A stretch of DNA of 10,420 nt from contig JBGQJI010000087.1 in NCBI GenBank assembly GCA_041498975.1, forward strand, positions 1 to 10,420, read 5' to 3'. Positions 659 to 10,420 of the stretch are shown here, one piece after another. This DNA comes from Candidatus Methylomirabilis sp. (GTDB lineage Bacteria; Methylomirabilota; Methylomirabilia; Methylomirabilales; Methylomirabilaceae). The notes under the pieces are model-generated. The model was not told the origin of the DNA, searched no databases, and saw only the letters and a list, made by a program, of their open reading frames with translations. Each line of letters opens with the position of its first letter. Position 1 is the first letter of the stretch. The translations under genes and the position numbers were made by a program.

Positions 659-1164
659 CTGAGGGCTTCGCCAAGACCAACAGGACGCCCGCGTCCGCTC
701 GGCGTGGCTGCCACGCCCACGGCTGCTCCAGCACTCGCGACCCTCGGAGGCTCGCCAATCGCCTTCTGCTCTCTGGCCCCAGCGAACAGCAGTTGAATCC
801 CCCCAATGTGTTCCTCTTGGCTCGACCGTACGCCGATGCCCTTCTCCCGCGCAAGTAACGCGCCACGGCCTCCGCTCCCTATCGGGGTGAGGGCATGGCC
901 TAATCACTGGCGAGGGGAGCCGTGCAGGCGATTGGGGTCCGAGACCAGGCGCTTCTCGAAGCGCTGCCTCTTGACAGACGACTGATCAGGGACATCAGGA
1001 AATTTGAAGGCGGGCCACGGGACTCCTCTAGACATGCTGTTCACCCTTACGGGCGACCTCATCTGTATTCATACATGCTCGCAGGCCAACATTCGAACGA
1101 AGTGGGGCGGCGCTCAGGCGGAAGGTCGACTTTCCTTGTGGAAATCATAGGATAGAAAAAGTTC

Positions 1165-1193
1165 TTGACACGCTTCGCCGTGCGAGATATAAA
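1165..1193 (+). promoter_or_regulatory. Sigma70-type promoter for the Rrf2-led operon
   Basis: TTGACA (1165-1170), 17-bp spacer, TATAAA (1188-1193). An A-rich tract lies just upstream and the Rrf2 ATG is 48 bp downstream. Confidence 0.75.
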
Positions 1194-1216
1194 ATCCGAG
1201 TAAGTCGATCGACAAT
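1192..1216. promoter_or_regulatory. Candidate Rrf2 (IscR type-1-like) operator overlapping the -10/+1 region
   Basis: AAATCCGAGTAAGTCGATCGACAAT has a 5-7-5 imperfect dyad core (CCGAG-N7-ATCGA) resembling IscR type-1 boxes. A similar core, TCGAC-N7-GTGGA, lies at 1126-1142. Confidence 0.5.
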
Positions 1217-1240
1217 CTTGTAATAGCTGGACAAAGGATC

Positions 1241-1690
1241 ATGCGAGTTTCCACCAAAGGCGATTACGCAACGCGGGCGATGCAGGATCTCGCCTTCCAC
1301 TATGATCAAGGGCCGATTCAGATCGAGGACATCGCGAAGCGACAACATCTTCCCGTGCGGTATCTGGAACAGATCCTCTTGAGCCTGAAACGGGCGGGCT
1401 TCCTTGAAAGCAAGCGGGGGGTGAATGGGGGCTACTACCTCGCCAAGCATCCTCGGGAGATCACCGTCGGGGCCATCATCAGGACCATGGAGGGCCCGAT
1501 CATCCCTATCTTCTGTGTCGGCAGCGGGAAGCGGGAGATCTGTATCGAAGAGCCGCTCTGCAGCCTGCGGGATATCTGGAACGAAGTCCGCGATGCTGTG
1601 GTGAGGATTGTGGACCATACCACTCTCGAAGATCTGTGTCGGCAGATCAGAGTGAAGCGAGAACGGCAGGAGTTGACGTACCAGATCTAA
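1241..1690 (+). CDS. Rrf2-family transcriptional regulator (CymR/IscR-like)
   Basis: Motifs MRVSTKGDYATRAM, YLEQILLSLKRAGFLESKRGVNGGYYLAK and ITVGAIIRTMEGP. Cys triad C-x8-C-x5-C. AAGGA RBS upstream. Confidence 0.95.
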   Translation: MRVSTKGDYATRAMQDLAFHYDQGPIQIEDIAKRQHLPVRYLEQILLSLKRAGFLESKRGVNGGYYLAKHPREITVGAIIRTMEGPIIPIFCVGSGKREICIEEPLCSLRDIWNEVRDAVVRIVDHTTLEDLCRQIRVKRERQELTYQI

Positions 1691-1792
1691 TCCCGTTCCA
1701 ACTATTTACACCACAATGGAGGCTAGGGACAGCGAGAGTTCTTGGTAGGGCTTATGTTGGCGATTAGCCGCACTCAGTTGGAACGGGACTAG
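1687..1792. mobile_element. MITE-like element / long terminal inverted repeat pair in the rrf2-cysK intergenic region
   Basis: CTAATCCCGTTCCAACT (1687-1703) and AGTTGGAACGGGACTAG (1776-1792) are reverse complements at 16/17 positions, with a perfect 13-bp core. The 72-bp interior is non-coding. Flanks are CTAA/CTAG. Confidence 0.55.
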
Positions 1793-1822
1793 CCCTTTTA
1801 GGGGCAAAAGGTATAGAGACCG

Positions 1823-2737
1823 ATGCCACGCTTGGTTCGAAACGCGCTCGAATTGATCGGCGATACCCCATTGGTGGAGTTGCAGCGGATTCCGCGGCGA
1901 GGCTCCGCCCGTATTCTTGGAAAGCTGGAGTCTCTGAATCCAGGGGGAAGCGTCAAAGATCGGATCGCCCTGGCAATGATCGAAGAGGCGGAGCGTAACG
2001 GGCGCCTGAAGCCGGGCGACACGATCGTCGAGCCGACCTCAGGGAACACCGGGATCGGCCTTGCGATGGTGGCGGCGATCAAAGGGTACCGGTTGATCCT
2101 GACGATGCCGGAAGACATGAGCCTGGAGCGCCGGACGCTGGTCGGTCGGTTCGGGGCCGAGCTGGTGCTCACTCCAGCAATCGAAGGGATGACTGGCGCG
2201 GTCTACGCGGCCCAGTCGCTGGTGGAAAAGCATCCCGATTACTTCATGCCTCAGCAGTTCCTGAACCCGGCCAACCCCGAGATCCACCGGCTGACCACAG
2301 CCAGGGAGATCCTCAAAGCGACTCAGGGGCAGATCGATGCGTTTGTGGCCGGCGTCGGGACCGGCGGGACCATCACGGGGGTAGGCGAGGTGTTGAAGAA
2401 AGAAGTTCCCGGCGTCCAGGTGATCGCAGTGGAACCAGCCAAGTCTCCCGTCTTACAGGGAGGCAGGGCCAGGCCCCACGGGATTCAGGGAATCGGCGCC
2501 AGCTTCGTCCCGGGAGTCCTGAACAGGGAGATGCTTGACGAGATCATCGCAGTCGAGGACGAGGATGCCTATCGGATGGCCGCTCGCCTGGCCAAAGAAG
2601 AAGGCCTCCTGGTGGGAATATCGGCGGGAGGAAACGTTGTTGCCTCGACGTTGGTGGCGGAACGGCTTGGAGCCGGGAAAGTCGTGGTCACAATCCTCCC
2701 CGACACGGGCGAGCGATACCTGACCGTCCCATTCTGA
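1823..2737 (+). CDS. cysK: Cysteine synthase A (O-acetylserine sulfhydrylase)
   Basis: Motifs LIGDTPLVEL, KLESLNPGGSVKDRIA (PLP lysine), EPTSGNTGIGLA, QQFLNPANPEIH, GVGTGGT, HGIQGIGASFVP and DTGERYL. Confidence 0.95.
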   Translation: MPRLVRNALELIGDTPLVELQRIPRRGSARILGKLESLNPGGSVKDRIALAMIEEAERNGRLKPGDTIVEPTSGNTGIGLAMVAAIKGYRLILTMPEDMSLERRTLVGRFGAELVLTPAIEGMTGAVYAAQSLVEKHPDYFMPQQFLNPANPEIHRLTTAREILKATQGQIDAFVAGVGTGGTITGVGEVLKKEVPGVQVIAVEPAKSPVLQGGRARPHGIQGIGASFVPGVLNREMLDEIIAVEDEDAYRMAARLAKEEGLLVGISAGGNVVASTLVAERLGAGKVVVTILPDTGERYLTVPF

Positions 2738-2819
2738 TTCGCGCGGGAGCCAGAGCATGAACGCCTATCGTGGTCTAGATTCTTTGAGGGGAGGGGAGCC
2801 AACGGGGGGTGAGGTGTCG

Positions 2820-3905
2820 ATGGCGATCCGTGTCTATATTCCGACTCCGTATCGGAAGCTGACCCGGAATCAGCCCGTCGTCGAGGGGCATGGGGACGAT
2901 CTGGTGGAACTCCTGGACGACCTGGAGAGGCGCTTTCCGGGCATCCGCGGCCATGTGCTCGACGAGGGTGGTGAGATTCACCGCCACCTAAACGTCTACG
3001 TGAACAGTGTGGCGCTGGAGGAGCTTGGAGGCAAGCGAACGCCACTGAAGGATGGTGACGAGGTGGCGGTGATCCCGGCCATGGCGGGCGGGGCCGTGCC
3101 CTTCAATGAAGAGCAGATCCGCCGCTACAGCCGGCATATCATCCTCCCCGAGGTGGGGGGCAAAGGTCAGCGCAAACTATTGAACAGTTCGATCCTCCTG
3201 GTCGGGGCAGGCGGCCTCGGCTCCCCTGCGGCCCTGTACCTCGCCGCCGCGGGTGTCGGTCGTCTCGGCATCATCGACGCCGATGTCGTGGACATGAGCA
3301 ATTTGCAACGCCAGATCCTCCACCACGTGGATGATGTGGGACGACCGAAGGTCCAGTCTGCGGTGGATTCGATCGGCCAGATCAACCCCGACGTGAAGGT
3401 TGAGCCGTTTCAGGCGATCCTCTCCTCGGAAAACGCCAAGGACATCATCGGCCAGTACGACCTTGTGGTCAACGGCTGTGACAACTTCCCGACCCGGTAC
3501 CTGGTCAACGACGTCTGTGTCTTTCTGAAGAAGCCGCTGGTAGACGGAAGTATCTTCAAGTTCGAAGGACAGGTGACGGTTTTTGTCCCTGGTCAGGGCT
3601 GCTACCGCTGCCTGTACCCTTCCCCTCCGCCTCCCGGACTTGTCCCGAGTTGTCAGGAGGCCGGCGTCCTGGGAGTGCTGTGCGGCATCGTCGGGAGCCT
3701 GCAAGCCATCGAGGCGATCAAGCTTCTGCTCGGGATCGGCGAGTCCCTGGCCGGGCGTCTGCTCTTCGTGGATGCATTTGGGATGGAGTTCCGGCAGGTC
3801 AAGGTGCGCCGCGACCCCGACTGCCCGGTGTGCGGAGACCGTCCGACCATCACCGATCCGATCGACTACTACGAATTCTGCGGGGTGCCTGCCACGGGTC
3901 ACTGA
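2820..3905 (+). CDS. moeB: Fusion of a CysO/MoaD/ThiS-like ubiquitin-fold sulfur carrier (aa 1-91, ending AMAGG) and a MoeB/ThiF-family E1 adenylyltransferase
   Basis: GAGGTG RBS before ATG 2820. Ubl: VYIPTPYRKLT...HLNVYVN...LKDGDEVAVIPAMAGG. E1: RYSRHIILPEVG, GAGGLGSP, SNLQRQILH, DNFPTRY, CYRC, CQEAGVLG and CPVC. No stop codon between the domains and no C-terminal rhodanese domain. Confidence 0.93.
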   Translation: MAIRVYIPTPYRKLTRNQPVVEGHGDDLVELLDDLERRFPGIRGHVLDEGGEIHRHLNVYVNSVALEELGGKRTPLKDGDEVAVIPAMAGGAVPFNEEQIRRYSRHIILPEVGGKGQRKLLNSSILLVGAGGLGSPAALYLAAAGVGRLGIIDADVVDMSNLQRQILHHVDDVGRPKVQSAVDSIGQINPDVKVEPFQAILSSENAKDIIGQYDLVVNGCDNFPTRYLVNDVCVFLKKPLVDGSIFKFEGQVTVFVPGQGCYRCLYPSPPPPGLVPSCQEAGVLGVLCGIVGSLQAIEAIKLLLGIGESLAGRLLFVDAFGMEFRQVKVRRDPDCPVCGDRPTITDPIDYYEFCGVPATGH

Positions 3906-3923
3906 AGGGAAAGGAACGACGCG

Positions 3924-4940
3924 GTGCTTCGAACGGTTGTCCTCGGAATGGTCGTTGGCGTGGCCTTCGGATACGCGCTTCAACGCGGCCGCTTCTGCAT
4001 GAACTCCACATTCCGCGATATCCTGGTGGCGCGGGACCTCACACTTCTCCGCGCGTACATCCTGGCCCTCCTGATCCAGATGGTCGGGGTCAGGGCGATG
4101 TCGGCATTGGGGTGGTTTGAGTTGGGCGTCACCCCCTTTTTCTGGGAGGCTACCCTGTTGGGCGGCTTCGTGTTCGGCCTGGGCATGGCCTTCTCGGGCG
4201 GGTGAGCGAGCGGCAGCACTTACCGGTCCGGTGAGGGGATGGTGGGATCGATCATCGCGTTGCTCGGGTTTGCGTTCGGAATCACCATGACGAGCGGTGG
4301 TGTGCTCGAGCCGGTCCAGACCGCCCTCCGGAGCTGGGTGGTCGAGATCGATGGGGAGTCGGCGACCCTGGATCGGCTCTTTGGAGTGAGCCCATGGCTC
4401 CTGGTCGCGGTGAGTGTGGCGGCCGGCGGATGGTGGTTGTGGAACAGCCCGGCAGGCGGATACCAGAAGGGGTGGAGCTGGACGAGAAGTGGGATCGCGA
4501 TCGGGCTGATCGCCACGTTCGCCTGGCCCATCTCGGCGCTCACCGGCAGGGATTACGGTCTCTCGATCACCGAGGGGATCCGGACGATTTTCGGGCTCCT
4601 GTTCACAGGCGAGGTCGATCTACTGACCTGGGGCAGCTTCATGTGGCTGGGGATCATCCCCGGTGCCTACCTGGCGGCGCGGTCGCACGGGGAATTCGCT
4701 TGGCGCGCGCCCGGCGCGCAGCGCCTCCTCCAGGCCCTCGGGGGCGGTCTCCTGATGGGGGTGGGGGCCGGGATCGCCGGGGGATGCAATATCGGGCATG
4801 GCCTGACTGGGGTCCCGCTCTTTGGCTTAAGCAGCCTGACGGCCACATTCAGCATCGTCCTGGGGGTCTGGACCGGAGCATATATCCTCTTCGGGAGCGT
4901 CGCTTTTGAGCGGAGGGTCAGAAGTGTCCAACGCGCGTAG
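3924..4940 (+). CDS. yeeE: YeeE/YedE (TsuA-like) thiosulfate/sulfur-compound transporter, predicted selenoprotein (UGA 4203-4205 = Sec94; 338 aa)
   Basis: Track ORFs 3924..4205 and 4239..4940 are in the same frame. Readthrough gives FGLGMAFSGG-U-ASGSTYRSGEG, matching the family GGCASG motif. The other conserved Cys motifs, RGRFC (C25) and AGGCNIGH (C288), are intact. Multiple TM helices; SECIS-like hairpin downstream of the UGA. Confidence 0.88.
4219..4235 (+). promoter_or_regulatory. Putative bacterial SECIS element
   Basis: CTTACC-GGTCC-GGTGAG hairpin (6-7 bp stem with one G-U pair). The GGUC-containing apical loop begins about 20 nt after the in-frame UGA. Confidence 0.75.
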
Positions 4941-5835
4941 GATCGGAATCTCTTTCATCGCGACGTGTGTCGTCTGTTGGGTCGGGGCAGTTCAGCCGGC
5001 CCTTGGAACGACGGTTGGCGGCTACGCGAACCCGCAGCTTTTGATCGAGACAGAGGAGTTGGCCAAGCTGGTTGACGAGCCGGCATTGCGGATTGTAGAC
5101 CTTCGAACACCGGAAGAGTATGCCGAGGGCCATATCCCGGGCGCGGTGCATCTGCGCTGGCAGGCCCTGGATGACCTCAAGGCGAATCAGGAGGGTCTCC
5201 CGATCCCCAAGGCTCTGGCAGAGGAGCTGTTCAGCGGAGTGGGGATCGGGGACACGACGAGGGTCGTTGCGTACGATGGTCCGAAGACCCCCTTTGGCGC
5301 CACCCGCCTCTTCTTTGTCCTGGAGTTCTTCGGCCATGACAAGGTCCGGGTGTTAAACGGCGGCTTCAAGAAGTGGGCGCAGGAAGGTCGCCCGGCCTCT
5401 ACCGAGGCGCCGGCGCCGGCCAAGGCCGCCTTCGTCGCTCGACCACGCCCAGAGCTGCTGGCCACCTCGCAGGAGGTGCGCGCGAGACTCGGCGACCCGA
5501 AGGTGTGCCTCCTGGATGCTCGATCGGCGAAGGAGTACACCGGGGAGGATCTCCGGGCCATGCGGGGTGGGAGGATTCCCGGGGCGGTCAATGTGGACTA
5601 CCTCAATACCATGCGGAGTGAGGACCAGACGTTCAAGAGCGTCGAGGAGTTGCGAAAGCTCTTTGAGTCCGCAGGGGTCACGCCGGACCGGGAGACGATC
5701 ACGTACTGCCACACGGGCGCCAGGGCGGCTCACGACTACTTCGTGCTGCGACTCCTGGGATACCAGAAGCTCAAGAACTACGATGGCTCATGGGCCGAAT
5801 GGGGTAACTCCGAGGGGCTGCCGATCGAGGAGTGA
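4924..5835 (+). CDS. Two-domain rhodanese / thiosulfate sulfurtransferase (SseA/TST-like) with probable signal peptide
   Basis: GGAGG RBS then GTG 4924 (alternative start 4906). N-terminus MSNARRIGISFIATCVVCWVGAVQPALG. Motifs YAEGHIPGAV, VRVLNGG, LLDARS, GGRIPGAVN, active-site loop YCHTGARA and YDGSWAEW. Overlaps the yeeE stop by 17 nt. Confidence 0.92.
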   Translation: MSNARRIGISFIATCVVCWVGAVQPALGTTVGGYANPQLLIETEELAKLVDEPALRIVDLRTPEEYAEGHIPGAVHLRWQALDDLKANQEGLPIPKALAEELFSGVGIGDTTRVVAYDGPKTPFGATRLFFVLEFFGHDKVRVLNGGFKKWAQEGRPASTEAPAPAKAAFVARPRPELLATSQEVRARLGDPKVCLLDARSAKEYTGEDLRAMRGGRIPGAVNVDYLNTMRSEDQTFKSVEELRKLFESAGVTPDRETITYCHTGARAAHDYFVLRLLGYQKLKNYDGSWAEWGNSEGLPIEE

Positions 5836-5848
5836 TGGGGGAGAATGG

Positions 5849-6076
5849 ATGGCGCAGTATTCGCTCGACGTGACCGGGGAGATTTGCCCCTATCCTTTGA
5901 TCATGACCAGGAAAGAGTTGGGGAAGCTGCAGCCGGGTGATCAACTGGTCGTGACAGTCGATTACGCAAAATCGGCGGAGGACATCCCCAGGTGGGCGAA
6001 GGAGGATGGCCACACCGTCCTGGCGGTTCGCGAGATGGGCGGGACACAGTGGGAAATCCTGCTGGAAAAGGGGTAA
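5849..6076 (+). CDS. TusA/SirA-family sulfur carrier (YeeD/TsuB-like), CPYP motif
   Basis: ATG 5849 after GGGGAG. Sequence MAQYSLDVTGEICPYPLIMTRKELGKLQPGDQLVVTVD...DIPRWAKEDGH, 75 aa. The track's 5516 start is an over-extension. Confidence 0.92.
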   Translation: MAQYSLDVTGEICPYPLIMTRKELGKLQPGDQLVVTVDYAKSAEDIPRWAKEDGHTVLAVREMGGTQWEILLEKG

Positions 6077-6134
6077 CCCTGATCTCCTGGGGCTGGCAGG
6101 CTGGCCGGCGCCGTCTTGAGCCGGGCGAGGTGTC

Positions 6135-7106
6135 GTGATCGCGTTGAATCCGCCACGGATGGTGTTGATGGCCCTGGCGCTTCTTGCAGGAGGCGCTGCT
6201 GCACAGGCGGAGGCGGCCGGTCGCGTCTACACGGCCAACATGGAGTCCGGCACCGTCTCCGTCATCGATGCCGACGCGATGAAGGTCGTGCTCACGATCG
6301 ATGCCAGGGGACATCACACCGACGACCTTTTCTTGTCGGCTGATCAGTCCAAGCTGTTCGCGACCAACATGCACAGCGGGACCCTGGCGGTCGTGGACAC
6401 CGCTACCGATCAGGTGATCGCCACGATCCCGACGGGGAAGAAGGCTCACTCCATTGCCCTCACTCAGGATGGCAAGCACGTCTGGGTGGTCAACGGGGGA
6501 GAGGAGTATTTGACCGTTGTGGATGTTGCCTCGCTCAGGATCGTCGGACGGGTCTTTCTGGGCCAGATCCTCGGCCCGGGATATGTCCGATTTAACCCCG
6601 AGGGAACACGGGCGTATATGACGAGCCCGATCCTCGGCACTGTTTCCGTGATCGACGTGGCCTCGAAGAAGGTGATCGCGACGGTGGAGGTCGGGAAGAG
6701 TCCGACCTTCATCGCCGTGACGTCCGATGGGCGGCGAATCTGGGGCGCCGATACCGGCGGCGACGAGATTTTTGCCCTCGATGGCTCGAACAATAGCCTG
6801 CTGGGGAAGCTGACAGTAGGGAAGGCTCCGAACCATCTCGCCCTCGTTGGCGACAGCCTCTATGTGACAGTGGGAGGGACGAACGAAGTGGCGATGGTGG
6901 GCGACGTGGGCGGCCAGGTGAGCGTGAGGGGGCGGATCAAGGTCGGCGGGAGGCCCCGTGGAATCAGGCCCAGCCCGGACGGGAAGCGCCTGTATGTCAC
7001 CAGTGAAGATACGAACGATCTGCACGTGATCGACATTGCGGCACAGAGGATAGTGGGGACGGTCCCGGTGGGCAGGAGGCCCGTCGCCGTCGTGACGGCG
7101 AGATAG
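6135..7106 (+). CDS. Secreted YVTN/YncE-family seven-bladed beta-propeller protein
   Basis: GAGGTG RBS. Signal peptide ...MVLMALALLAGGAAAQAEA. Seven repeats of the type RVYTANMESGTVSVID / RLYVTSEDTNDLHVID, several linked by VGxxP-type turns. Confidence 0.9.
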   Translation: MIALNPPRMVLMALALLAGGAAAQAEAAGRVYTANMESGTVSVIDADAMKVVLTIDARGHHTDDLFLSADQSKLFATNMHSGTLAVVDTATDQVIATIPTGKKAHSIALTQDGKHVWVVNGGEEYLTVVDVASLRIVGRVFLGQILGPGYVRFNPEGTRAYMTSPILGTVSVIDVASKKVIATVEVGKSPTFIAVTSDGRRIWGADTGGDEIFALDGSNNSLLGKLTVGKAPNHLALVGDSLYVTVGGTNEVAMVGDVGGQVSVRGRIKVGGRPRGIRPSPDGKRLYVTSEDTNDLHVIDIAAQRIVGTVPVGRRPVAVVTAR

Positions 7107-7133
7107 ATCGACCGTCGCTTTGGAGGAAGTCGG

Positions 7134-7379
7134 ATGAGCGAGCGCCATCAGCAGGTGGCCGAATCCCTCGATTTGAAGGGTGAGGTCTGCCCCTACACCT
7201 TTGTCAAGAGCAAGCTGGCGCTGGAGGAGATGGAAAGCGGCCAGGTGCTGAGAGTGATCGTAGATAACCGAGGCTCGGCCGAAAACGTCCCTAGAAGCTT
7301 GACCAGTGAGGGGCACCAGATCCTGGACGTGTCACAATTGAACGAAACGGACTGGGCGATCACGGTGAAAAAGGCCTGA
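7134..7379 (+). CDS. Second TusA/SirA-family sulfur carrier, CPYT motif
   Basis: GGAGGA RBS. Sequence SLDLKGEVCPYTFVKSKLALEEMESGQVLRVIVD...ENVPRSLTSEGH, 81 aa. Confidence 0.92.
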   Translation: MSERHQQVAESLDLKGEVCPYTFVKSKLALEEMESGQVLRVIVDNRGSAENVPRSLTSEGHQILDVSQLNETDWAITVKKA

Positions 7380-7501
7380 TGCGCGCAGCGTCAGCCGTTG
7401 AATCACTCTCGGCAGCAGGCAAGATGGGGGAAGACGGAACTTCGGGCAGCCTGACGGGTTGAAGCGACCCGGGCACGGGACTGACGACAAAGGGGACATG
7501 G

Positions 7502-8437
7502 ATGAAATCAGCCGATATTCTCGATGCCATCGGTAAGACGCCGCTGGTGGAGCTTACGCGGATCAGTCCCAAGAAAGGGGTCAGGATCTTCGCCAAGATG
7601 GAGGGAAACAACCCCACCGGGAGCCTGAAGGATCGGATCGCGAAGTACATGATCGAGCAGGCTGAACGGAGCGGCGAGCTGACGAAGGACAAGACGATCT
7701 TGGAGCCGACAAGCGGCAACACCGGCATCGCCCTGGCCATGATCGGGCGAAGGAAAGGGTATAAGGTCAAGGTCGTGATCCCGGAGAACGCCACACCGGA
7801 GCGGCGCCAACTCCTGGAGATCTTCGGCGCCGAGATGATCTACTCTGATGGGACGAAAGGGAGCAACGGCGCCATCGAGCTGGCTCAGAGGCTGGTCGCC
7901 CAGGATGCATCCCTCTACATGCCATACCAGTACGGCAATCCCGCCAACCCCCTCGCCCACTATGAGACGACCGGTGTGGAGATCTTGAACGACCTGCCGG
8001 AAATCGACGTCTTCGTGGCCGGCCTTGGCACAGGCGGAACCCTGATGGGTGTGGGCCGACGGCTGAAAGAAGTCAATCCCAAGACCAAGGTCATCGCTGT
8101 CGAGCCTCATCCCGGCGATCTGGTCCAGGGGCTTCGCAGCCTGGAAGAAGGTTTCATTCCGCCCATCCTCGACACAAGCCTGCTGGACGGAAAGATCATG
8201 GTTGACTCCCGCTGCGCCTTTGCCGCCACCCGGGACCTGACCAATAAGGAAGGGATCTTCGCAGGGGTCTCCTCGGGGGCTGTGGTTCATGTCGCCATCC
8301 GGATGGCGCACCGGCTGGAGGAGGGAAACATCGTCGTCATCCTCTGTGATGGCGGATGGAAGTACGTGAGCCTTGGCGTATGGCACAAGGAGTTTCCGGA
8401 GCTCGGTGAAAATATGTACAGCCATCTCTGGTGGTAG
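7502..8437 (+). CDS. cysM: CysM-type PLP-dependent cysteine synthase (probably sulfur-carrier-dependent O-phosphoserine sulfhydrylase)
   Basis: Motifs NNPTGSLKDRIA, EPTSGNTGI, YQYGNPANPLAHYETTG, GLGTGGTLMG, GLRSLEEGFIP and DGGWKY, with C-terminal HLWW. These resemble actinobacterial CysM. Neighbours are a CysO-like carrier, an E1 and Mec. Confidence 0.88.
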   Translation: MKSADILDAIGKTPLVELTRISPKKGVRIFAKMEGNNPTGSLKDRIAKYMIEQAERSGELTKDKTILEPTSGNTGIALAMIGRRKGYKVKVVIPENATPERRQLLEIFGAEMIYSDGTKGSNGAIELAQRLVAQDASLYMPYQYGNPANPLAHYETTGVEILNDLPEIDVFVAGLGTGGTLMGVGRRLKEVNPKTKVIAVEPHPGDLVQGLRSLEEGFIPPILDTSLLDGKIMVDSRCAFAATRDLTNKEGIFAGVSSGAVVHVAIRMAHRLEEGNIVVILCDGGWKYVSLGVWHKEFPELGENMYSHLWW

Positions 8438-8438
8438 G

Positions 8439-8915
8439 ATGGACCTTACTCAGGACGCCTTGAAAGAGATCTTCGCCCACGCCGAGGAGGGCTACCCCGA
8501 CGAAGTCTGCGGGATCGTGCTCGGGAAGGGGAGCGATCCGAACACGCATCTGGTCCGCCGATGCGCCAATCTCGCGAACCAGCATCATCAGGAAGATCCG
8601 GTTCGCTTTCCCAGAGATGCCAGGACCGCGTATGTCATGGACCCTCAGGACCTTCTGCGCATCCAGCGCGAAGCCGATACCAAGGGGCTTGACTTCCTTG
8701 TCATCTATCATTCCCACACGGATCATGAGGCATACTTCTCCAAGACCGACAAAGAGCTGGCGCTGTTCGATGGGGAGCCGATGTGGCCTCATGCGCGGTA
8801 CATGGTGATTTCTGTCAAGGACCATAATGTATCTTATTATAAGGTATTTAGATGGGATTCTCTACTAAACGACTTTATAGATGAGCCGTCCTCCGTTTTG
8901 AAGGCAAGCCGGTAG
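8439..8915 (+). CDS. mec: JAMM/MPN+ (M67) metalloprotease, Mec-like CysO-cysteine peptidase
   Basis: ATG 8439 lies one base after the cysM stop. Motifs HAEEGYPDEVCG and YHSHTDHEAYFSKTD (E...HxH-x7-S-x2-D). 158 aa. Confidence 0.92.
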   Translation: MDLTQDALKEIFAHAEEGYPDEVCGIVLGKGSDPNTHLVRRCANLANQHHQEDPVRFPRDARTAYVMDPQDLLRIQREADTKGLDFLVIYHSHTDHEAYFSKTDKELALFDGEPMWPHARYMVISVKDHNVSYYKVFRWDSLLNDFIDEPSSVLKASR

Positions 8916-9012
8916 CCTCTTTTTGGCCCGCGGTTCTTGATGGTTTCAATCGACGTACTCGCACATGTAGACGTTGACGACTGACCGGAGGAATGTGCCA
9001 CCAGCGAAGGGA

Positions 9013-10420
9013 ATGGCGGTGAGCGACCCACGGTTGGACGAAACCAAGGCGCAAAGGATTGAGCGCCTGAAGAAGGAAAAGAACCCGTGGGAGTGCTTCG
9101 ACGAAATCCGCCGCTTCGCCCGAGAGGGGTTTCAAGCGATTCCGGCAGAATGGCTGGCCAGCTACCTCCGGTGGTGGGGGGTGTATACGCAGGGGGACGG
9201 GATCGGCGCGGTTGGAGGGAAGGGGGGGGAGGGAAAATCCACGCCGTACTTCATGGTGCGCATCCGCATCCCGAATGGGTTTCTGCTTGCCCATCAACTG
9301 CGTACCATTGCTGACCTTGCCGCACAGCACGCCCGCGGCGTCGCCGACCTCAGCGTCCGGCAGAACATCCAACTGCACTGGGTCACGATCGAGGACCTGC
9401 CCGAGCTTCTTGAGTCTCTCTGGAGATGCGGAATCACGACGATGGGTTCGTGCGGCGACGATACGCGGAACATCACCGGCTGCCCGCTTGCCGGTGTGGA
9501 CGGTGATGAACTCGTCGATGCCTCGCCCCTGGTCCATGCGGCGACTCGCCTGTTGAACGGGAACGCGGAGTTTTATAACCTGCCGCGCAAGTACAAGATC
9601 TGCATCAGTGGTTGCCGCGCCTGGTGTGCCTACCCCGAGATCAATGACATCGGAATGACCGCCGTCGGGCATCCGAAGTCCGGCGAGATCGGGTTCTCAG
9701 TGCGGGTCGGCGGGGGACTTTCCACGCAGCCTCACCTGGGCGTTCGGCTGAATGTCTTTGTGCGCTGGGACCAGGTGCTGCCGGTCGTGAAAGGTATCAC
9801 GGAAACCTTCCGCGATTCAGACATCTTGCGCCAGGATAGGGAAAAGGCGCGGATGAAATTCCTGTTCCTCACCCATGGGTGGACCGCCGAACGATTTCAG
9901 AAGGAGGTGGAACGCCGCACCGGCTTTTTCCTCGACCCGGCCGTGCCGGAAGAGCCGCCGGACGATGTCTACCGCGACCACGTCGGCGTTCACCCGCAGA
10001 AGCAGCACGGGTATTACTATGCGGGCGTTCCCGTCCTTCGCGGGCGGATGACCGCCGAGCAGATGCAGGGGATGGCGGGTCTTGCCGATCGCTATGGCAG
10101 CGGCGAGCTGCGCATCACCGTTATGCAGAACCTGGTGATCCCGAACATCCGGCAGTCGCACATACAGGCGCTCAAAGAGGAGATCAACCAGACAGGTCTG
10201 CGACTCGAGGCGTCACCCTTCTGGCGAGGCACGATCGCCTGCACGGGGACGGAATTCTGCAAGCTCGCCTTGACGGAGACCAAAGGGTTTGCCGGATGGC
10301 TGGTGGAAGAGCTCGAGCGACGGATGCCGGGCTTCGACCAGCACGTCAAGATCCACGTCACCGGCTGTCCGAATAGCTGCGGGCAGCAGTGGATCGCCGA
10401 CATCGGGATCGAGGGGAAGA
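9013..10420 (+). CDS. Ferredoxin-dependent sulfite/nitrite reductase (siroheme-[4Fe-4S] hemoprotein, Sir/NirA family), 3'-truncated
   Basis: Missing from the ORF track because it runs off the window. Frame reads LRWWGVYTQ, FMVRIRIPNG, RQNIQLHW, SCGDDTRNITGCP, NLPRKYK, IACTGTEFCKLA and HVTGCPNSCGQ. Start is uncertain (GTG 8995, ATG 9013 or GTG 9019). Sulfite specificity is inferred from context. Confidence 0.93.
   Translation, partial: MAVSDPRLDETKAQRIERLKKEKNPWECFDEIRRFAREGFQAIPAEWLASYLRWWGVYTQGDGIGAVGGKGGEGKSTPYFMVRIRIPNGFLLAHQLRTIADLAAQHARGVADLSVRQNIQLHWVTIEDLPELLESLWRCGITTMGSCGDDTRNITGCPLAGVDGDELVDASPLVHAATRLLNGNAEFYNLPRKYKICISGCRAWCAYPEINDIGMTAVGHPKSGEIGFSVRVGGGLSTQPHLGVRLNVFVRWDQVLPVVKGITETFRDSDILRQDREKARMKFLFLTHGWTAERFQKEVERRTGFFLDPAVPEEPPDDVYRDHVGVHPQKQHGYYYAGVPVLRGRMTAEQMQGMAGLADRYGSGELRITVMQNLVIPNIRQSHIQALKEEINQTGLRLEASPFWRGTIACTGTEFCKLALTETKGFAGWLVEELERRMPGFDQHVKIHVTGCPNSCGQQWIADIGIEGK

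Follow-up and report, generated by a model that had tools for sequence, protein, structure and literature searches.

We analysed a window of 10,420 nucleotides of Candidatus Methylomirabilis sp. (contig JBGQJI010000087.1), in which a run of same-strand genes surrounds a gene for a membrane transporter of the YeeE/YedE family (Table 1). With translation table 11, this gene appears as two open reading frames, one of 93 aa at 3924-4205 and the other of 233 aa at 4239-4940. A preliminary description of the locus had read them as a single interrupted frame coding for a Cys25/Sec94/Cys288 product, in which the TGA takes the place of the middle one of three conserved cysteines of a YeeE/TsuA-type protein. 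Our results bear out this reading. One frame leads from GTG 3924 to TAG 4938-4940 on the forward strand, the TGA at 4203-4205 is its only break, and one Pfam match extends across both halves. Translated with TGA as U, it comprises 338 codons without a second stop, in the context FSGG-U-ASGSTYRSGEG, and C25 and C288 are the only cysteines other than position 94. The frame, the structural model and the alignment to YeeE of S. thermophila (StYeeE), in which C25, U94 and C288 fall on C22, C91 and C293, support the 338-aa product, with selenocysteine (Sec) as its predicted central residue. The preliminary description had also expected standard gene calling to split such genes; indeed, 37 of the 120 database homologs listed consist of the C-terminal fragment only, and U is absent from all 120. 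The annotation error is systematic, with dozens of NC10-type YeeE genes split in the databases.

Table 1. Features of the window, numbered from its first nucleotide
Feature	Position	Strand	Basis
Rrf2-family regulator, best subfamily match CymR (below cut-off)	1241..1690	+	family scans
Cysteine synthase A, CysK, above the TIGR01139 cut-off	1823..2737	+	family scan
ThiS/MoaD-like carrier fused to ThiF/MoeB-like activating enzyme	2757..3905	+	family scans
YeeE/YedE (TsuA-like) membrane transporter gene, 338 aa, C25/U94/C288	3924..4940	+	frame, Pfam, alignment, model
In-frame TGA, predicted Sec codon U94 (= StYeeE C91)	4203..4205	+	translation, alignment, orthologs
SECIS-like hairpin, 6-pair stem 4219-4224/4230-4235, loop 4225-4229 starting GG	4219..4235	+	comparative
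Two-domain rhodanese, signal-peptide-like N-terminus, candidate periplasmic sulfur donor	4924..5835	+	family scan, orthologs
TusA/YeeD(TsuB)-like sulfur carrier, CPYP motif, candidate cytoplasmic acceptor	5849..6076	+	family scans
YVTN/YncE-type beta-propeller, hydrophobic N-terminus	6135..7106	+	family scans
Second TusA-like protein, CPYT motif	7134..7379	+	family scans
Second cysteine synthase, CysM-like, above the TIGR01136 cut-off	7502..8437	+	family scan
JAB/Mec+-type protease; ORF listed from 8373, ATG at 8439	8439..8915	+	ORF list, family scan
Nitrite/sulfite reductase (NirA/SirA-like), truncated by contig end	8974..10420	+	family scans

Judged from its gene content, the same-strand run around YeeE is a sulfur-assimilation cluster. 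The rhodanese probably starts at GTG 4924, overlapping the YeeE stop codon, and the CPYP protein scored 67 against the YeeD model, below the cut-off of 147.5. Both hallmarks of a TsuA-TsuB pair were found, i.e., a CPxP TusA/YeeD neighbour and the interface residues R31, R101, E104 and E257. The ThiS/MoaD carrier is joined via Gly-Gly to its ThiF/MoeB activator, with the JAB protease and the second cysteine synthase nearby, and a bactofilin fragment and a 137-aa CxxC protein (weak FxLYD match) occupy positions 3-658, upstream of the cluster. A promoter scan returned 5 promoter-like sites where 1.7 were expected; on the forward strand within 900-9100, none of them precedes the gene run, and no forward-strand terminator was found.

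The product gave one match to PF04143 (Sulf_transp), over residues 21-317 and the complete model (1-310 of 310), at 265.4 bits (cut-off 27), and its top PDB match by sequence was StYeeE (6LEO, E 1.2e-50), with position 94 on C91. The structure predicted from a 73-sequence alignment, with Cys put at position 94, reached a pLDDT of 92.9 (a single-sequence model was unusable, at 42.9) and superposed on 6LEO with a TM score of 0.89 and an rmsd of 1.9. The top five Foldseek matches of this model were all YeeE proteins (TM 0.86-0.90), and the hourglass fold of StYeeE was recovered. By alignment, R28, R98, E101, R215 and E261 of StYeeE, the roles of which are described in passages of PMC7449682 and PMC11073785, correspond to R31, R101, E104, R209 and E257 here. 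The locus shares this fold, the Cys path, the conserved R/E residues and a nearby CPxP TusA-like partner with the TsuA-TsuB systems of S. thermophila and E. coli (6LEO, 8K1R; PMC7449682, PMC11073785). It differs from them in having Sec for C91, in its 37% identity to TsuA, in T and G at the positions of the St binding-site residues K67 and E241, and in a gene run that also holds an exported-type rhodanese and a beta-propeller. The scores against the TsuA equivalog models (NF052577, 252 against a cut-off of 400; NF041049, 212 against 645) are both below the cut-off, and those against the Se-YedE/FdhT models (NF033796, 100.4 against 350; TIGR04112, 40 against 200) are far below. The Se-linked YedE/FdhT proteins belong to the same superfamily and have a TusA-like partner, YedF, but are defined by their association with Se metabolism and not by containing Sec. 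As far as its residues and neighbours indicate, the protein resembles TsuA in the way it works but fails the cut-offs of the TsuA and Se-YedE models; because both TsuA-model scores are below the cut-off, thiosulfate specificity is treated as a candidate assignment. The closest named database records are Ca. Methylomirabilis, Methylomirabilota or unlabelled MAGs, with 79-91% identity.

A genome without selABCD had been named in advance as an argument against Sec at this codon. The host genome (2.68 Mb, 61.8% GC, 241 contigs, 84.9% complete) contains all four components: selA (505 bits) and selB (378 bits), both above cut-off, a tRNA-Sec with UCA anticodon (71 bits, above cut-off, and also called as tRNA-Sec by ARAGORN), and selD (399 bits, above cut-off), which itself has an in-frame TGA. 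When the host and 60 relatives were searched, 48 of the 61 genomes gave a match. Among the 30 best loci, codon 94 is TGA in 21 and TGC or TGT in 9, with the other two cysteines kept in all; this count includes the unpublished genomes G027 and G054, without which TGA is found in 19 of 28. The TGA is thus not unique to the assembly, being present at the same codon in 20 other genomes whose proteins are 54-91% identical to that of the window. Cys is invariant at this column in the 72 full-length database homologs aligned, as well as in 59 of 59 distant homologs (L070-L129 without the close relative L098). In a scan of 251 genomes from the phylum, one internal TGA was present in 41 of the 150 PF04143 matches listed (11 further matches were obtained), placed at the central Cys in 37, at the first Cys in 2 and unplaced in 2, and none of the 150 has an internal TAG or TAA.

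These distributions bear on two explanations that dispense with Sec. The fragmented and incomplete assembly could favour a sequencing or assembly error, but the recurrence of the codon in 20 other genomes speaks against it, as do contigs from public sediment runs, which showed no difference at 4203-4205 among the 40 of 78 differences listed; these are contigs and not raw reads, few of them cover 31 bases to the left and to the right, and the window may itself derive from one of the runs. The sole RNA run contained only the sequence of a related strain, in contigs that begin at 4226, downstream of the TGA. TGA is the commonest stop in the host genome, where it terminates 325 of 629 long ORFs, and it also ends several genes of the window; general recoding of UGA, as in a Trp or Gly code, is therefore excluded. 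Taken together, error or recoding is extremely improbable.

According to the other explanation, UGA terminates translation, and the two halves are either dead or form a PmpA/PmpB-like pair through re-initiation at 4239. Two-piece YeeE proteins are indeed known (PMC11582611) and the host genome has such a pair on contig C136; a purine-rich stretch precedes ATG 4239 and GTG 4242, and UGA is the usual stop in this genome. However, termination at position 94 would remove a Cys that is essential in both StYeeE and E. coli YeeE (PMC7449682), and PmpB is described as retaining the central Cys (PMC11582611). Moreover, the internal stop in the PF04143 matches listed is always TGA and nearly always on a conserved Cys, and the purine-rich stretch codes for a conserved GEGM motif that is also present in Cys homologs and in archaea. 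We regard a split gene or pseudogene as highly improbable, and decoding of the TGA at 4203-4205 as Sec as very likely, close to certain.

The bacterial SECIS consensus includes the spacing from the UGA and a G in the loop. In the window gene, a SECIS-like hairpin is located at +17 to +33 from the TGA, and its six pairs are complete in 9/9 TGA genes of the genus versus 0/9 Cys genes. In other genera, they are complete in 7 of the 12 TGA genes, with one or two pairs missing from the other five. One of the pairs is made by ACT, a rare Thr codon (8% genome-wide) that occurs in every TGA gene of the genus, and synonymous resampling retained all six in 117 of 20000 trials. Across 24 distinct TGA sequences, 93.8% of cells pair and three pairs are changed on both sides, compared with 77.8% of cells and no such pair in the 9 Cys genes; these values are to be read with the stem having been defined on the window gene and its kin not being independent. 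The compensatory changes stem from whole lineages and alter amino acids too, and the count of pairs altered on both sides was matched in 107 of 500 shuffles. Stems in the same register, but with different letters, were also found in two further Sec-YeeE lineages, in one of them in 6/6 genes, and in the other in 8/9 TGA versus 0/8 Cys genes.

Over codons 95-105, synonymous difference was suppressed in TGA genes, at 0.12 in the genus (gene mean 0.39) and 0.30 in 10 genes from other genera (gene mean 0.47), but not in the Cys genes (0.31, gene mean 0.35). One further 11-codon stretch, codons 51-61 (about 4074-4106), was equally low (0.09) in the genus TGA set, which was not observed in other genera. 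The folding energy of the region 3' of the TGA was no better than that of shuffles (z -0.17 to -0.99) and, because shuffles fold equally well, was dropped as evidence. In the window gene, the helix has a probability of 0.46 and a competing fold is present.

With the other genera as outgroup, the sequences place Sec as the ancestral state of the YeeE orthologous group of the window. All Cys copies among the 30 loci fall in one well-supported clade of 11 genomes, together with the TGA copies of G012 and G019. In trees built without codon 94 (and, for DNA, also without the hairpin), the Sec/Cys changes needed are 2 in the DNA tree and 3 in the protein tree. As one common Cys clade remains compatible with the data (p-AU 0.086), we do not claim independent Sec losses. 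The idea that the Cys orthologs belong to genomes that lost the Sec machinery was discarded, as selA, selB and a TGA-bearing selD are present in 9/9 Cys genomes. A 91-nt tRNA-Sec hit was obtained in 8 of these nine, and a weaker 98-nt hit in G001. To judge from these comparisons, Sec reverted to Cys, with SECIS decay, within a Sec-using genus. Such reversion has already been described for other families and is uncommon (PMC1794560); the present one offers a clean case, with SECIS decay while Sec decoding is retained. In a wider quick tree of 46 rows, for which the root was not inferred, central TGA occurs in three separate groups, and the well-supported branches force at least 3 Sec/Cys changes.

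The rhodanese gene directly follows YeeE in 18/21 TGA loci versus 0/9 Cys loci (16/19 TGA loci without the unpublished G027 and G054); one of the three exceptions is cut by a contig end, and two have no rhodanese. The N-termini of the rhodanese and its orthologs are signal-peptide-like, as judged by eye and hydropathy. A close ortholog was not found in the 9 Cys genomes, the 11-genome clade yielding only a paralog of 44-48% identity, and on this sequence evidence its absence from the clade represents one loss event. Because of this single loss, and because Sec is kept without the rhodanese in two genomes, we treat the link between rhodanese and Sec as a lead and not as a correlation.

A high novelty of this Sec-YeeE is not supported, since the family has already been tabulated as a predicted selenoprotein. 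The YeeE/YedE row in the selenoprotein table of PMC13188914 (2026) gives the motif GUxSG and the example WP_012471001.1, the table of PMC9312934 (2022) includes YeeE/YedE, and supplementary file 4 of PMC5029168 (2016) lists it for 5 organisms. Reviews cite PMC2398784 for the family, though its main text has no mention of YeeE/YedE; PMC12013277 has none either. Other predicted transporter selenoproteins are named in PMC13188914. As the same paper counts 63 predicted selenoprotein genes in one Methylomirabilota MAG, the phylum was already known to use Sec. Thus, the window gene adds a member to a known predicted selenoprotein family. It shares with the catalogued proteins the Pfam family and a single Sec, and its GUASG fits GUxSG, a motif that, among the three conserved cysteines, fits the central one only; the match to the catalogued row is by motif and family. 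Unlike the catalogued motif, the relatives of the window gene in other genera have GUTTG or GUATS. The catalogue passages of these papers make no mention of a distribution in Methylomirabilota, of Sec-to-Cys reversion or of TGA at the first or third Cys. By titles and abstract openings in the open literature, we found no experimental study of a Sec-YeeE. Our results widen a family that was listed for only 5 organisms in 2016. Their residual value lies in the natural Sec/Cys pairs, in the recurrence of Sec at one residue, and in a small number of genes whose TGA falls on the first or third Cys.

Overall, we consider a full-length, Sec-containing YeeE importer of reduced sulfur to be the best explanation of the locus, and a highly probable one. 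In the scheme we propose, SelB on the hairpin would deliver Sec-tRNA to the UGA, and a single gene would yield a full-length inner-membrane importer of the YeeE family. In the structural model, the path is ordered with Cys288 on the periplasmic side, Sec94 in the middle and Cys25 on the cytoplasmic side. Based on the neighbouring genes, the substrate would move along Cys288, Sec94 and Cys25 to the CPYP TusA/YeeD protein, and the imported sulfur may then supply both cysteine synthases as well as the carrier system of ThiS-ThiF and JAB. We favour thiosulfate as the substrate, as for TsuA-TsuB, with moderate confidence; a less probable candidate is sulfane sulfur, or polysulfide, produced by the exported rhodanese encoded next to YeeE, and a selenium species is an improbable one. 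Because half of the genus has Cys at this position, we interpret Sec as a more reactive yet replaceable form of the essential central thiol. Compared with a thiol, a selenol has greater acidity and nucleophilicity, and covalent exchange would therefore suit it better than hydrogen-bond donation to an anion. It is conceivable, though we think it unlikely, that Sec has been recruited repeatedly to the mid-membrane Cys, in three lineages of one phylum, for transient covalent S/Se exchange in place of guidance by hydrogen bonds, with a Cys-Sec-Cys wire to TusA that the rhodanese of this lineage loads with sulfane sulfur; occasional recruitment of Sec onto the other two path cysteines may form part of this picture.

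Work on Cys-containing homologs leaves room for more than one chemistry. C91 and C293 are essential in StYeeE, none of the three cysteines of E. coli YeeE tolerates replacement by Ser, and an S-H-S hydrogen-bond relay has been proposed (PMC7449682). YeeD contributes a fourth cysteine, C17, which accepts thiosulfate, and the cysteines are spaced 8.6, 6.7 and 10.8 Å apart (PMC11073785). Passages of PMC11582611 describe SoxT1A/B of Hyphomicrobium denitrificans, also of the YeeE family, as having three conserved cysteines, essential in SoxT1B, and as being paired with periplasmic and cytoplasmic sulfur transferases; they are proposed sulfane-sulfur carriers, and for SoxT1A, thiosulfate transport is argued against. 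The SoxT proteins function in sulfur oxidation and signalling, whereas the context of the window is assimilatory, and Sec does not figure in the passages on SoxT (PMC11582611).

A variant of the preferred explanation, different in substrate and chemistry, is a covalent sulfane-sulfur relay, in which the exported rhodanese splits periplasmic thiosulfate and transient Cys288-S, Sec94-S and Cys25-S bonds pass a sulfur atom or a short polysulfide to TusA, with Sec selected for faster exchange. The position of the rhodanese gene next to TGA but not Cys copies of YeeE, the signal-peptide-like N-termini and the occurrence of central-Cys TGA in three separate YeeE lineages are consistent with such a relay, as are the C22-C91 disulfide in StYeeE crystals (PMC7449682) and PspE of E. 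coli, which generates sulfane sulfur in the periplasm for uptake into the cell along a path not yet identified (PMC10215317). However, the rhodanese link amounts to one evolutionary event, G012 and G019 keep TGA without it, the cysteines are 6.7-8.6 Å apart (PMC11073785), and direct Cys-to-Cys transfer has been questioned (PMC11582611); we consider the relay unlikely.

A selenium importer, carrying selenide or selenite-derived species as the Se-linked YedE/FdhT proteins do, and with a Sec codon that couples its synthesis to the Se supply, appears very improbable. YedE proteins have been linked to Se metabolism (PMC9312934, PMC11582611), and selD is located 11-14 kb upstream of YeeE, on the opposite strand, in 6 (G006, G009, G010, G012, G014 and G019) of the 19 genomes of the genus that gave a selD hit, the selD of the host (G000) being on another contig. 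Against this, the TsuA models are much closer than those of Se-YedE, family scans named no sel gene among the 13 window proteins, the neighbours are for cysteine synthesis, and an importer that needs Se for its own synthesis would presumably be off in Se scarcity. The Sec/Cys orthologs form closely related pairs of a structurally solved transporter for which the chemistry, hydrogen-bond relay or covalent transfer, is unsettled; if Sec was repeatedly recruited for covalent exchange, these natural pairs (about 80% identity) would bear directly on how YeeE moves sulfur.

Further TGA-bearing genes were observed in the genomes searched. Two YeeE-like sequences, L141 (G049) and L142 (G047), have TGA on the first conserved Cys (RGRF-stop-M), with the central Cys kept, Asp at the third position and a hairpin at shorter spacing. 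Both genomes have selA; selB gave a partial hit in G049 and none above cut-off in G047. By sequence, L141 and L142 are candidates for Sec at a position outside the GUxSG motif. In a Nitrospirae MAG (L129:3561-3563, a single genome, with selA and selB), it is the third conserved Cys that coincides with the TGA (AGG-stop-NIG), and a strong hairpin follows. A YeeE subfamily without the first Cys (FGFT motif; L153-L161) has a central TGA in 9 genomes, with Cys at this position in another 8 relatives, and the hairpin tracks the TGA. The Sec-YeeE lineage with the motif G-U-ATS (L143-L146, L162, L164) has a very stable in-register hairpin and no Cys member among the sequences fetched. The two-piece locus of the host genome (L140, G000:C136, about 200-2295) is PmpA/PmpB-like, with the C-half preceding the N-half, and is followed by a second signal-peptide-bearing rhodanese. 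A motif scan for further selenoproteins gave mostly noise and no FdhA pattern; three likely UxxC selenoprotein genes (redoxin/DsbA-like by eye) with hairpins after the TGA are located on contigs C10, C107 and C109 of the host. Finally, rhodanese paralogs near the YeeE cluster in two genomes (G042:C50:14206-15105 and G040:C218:68629-69489) have one internal TGA each and are possible Sec rhodaneses.
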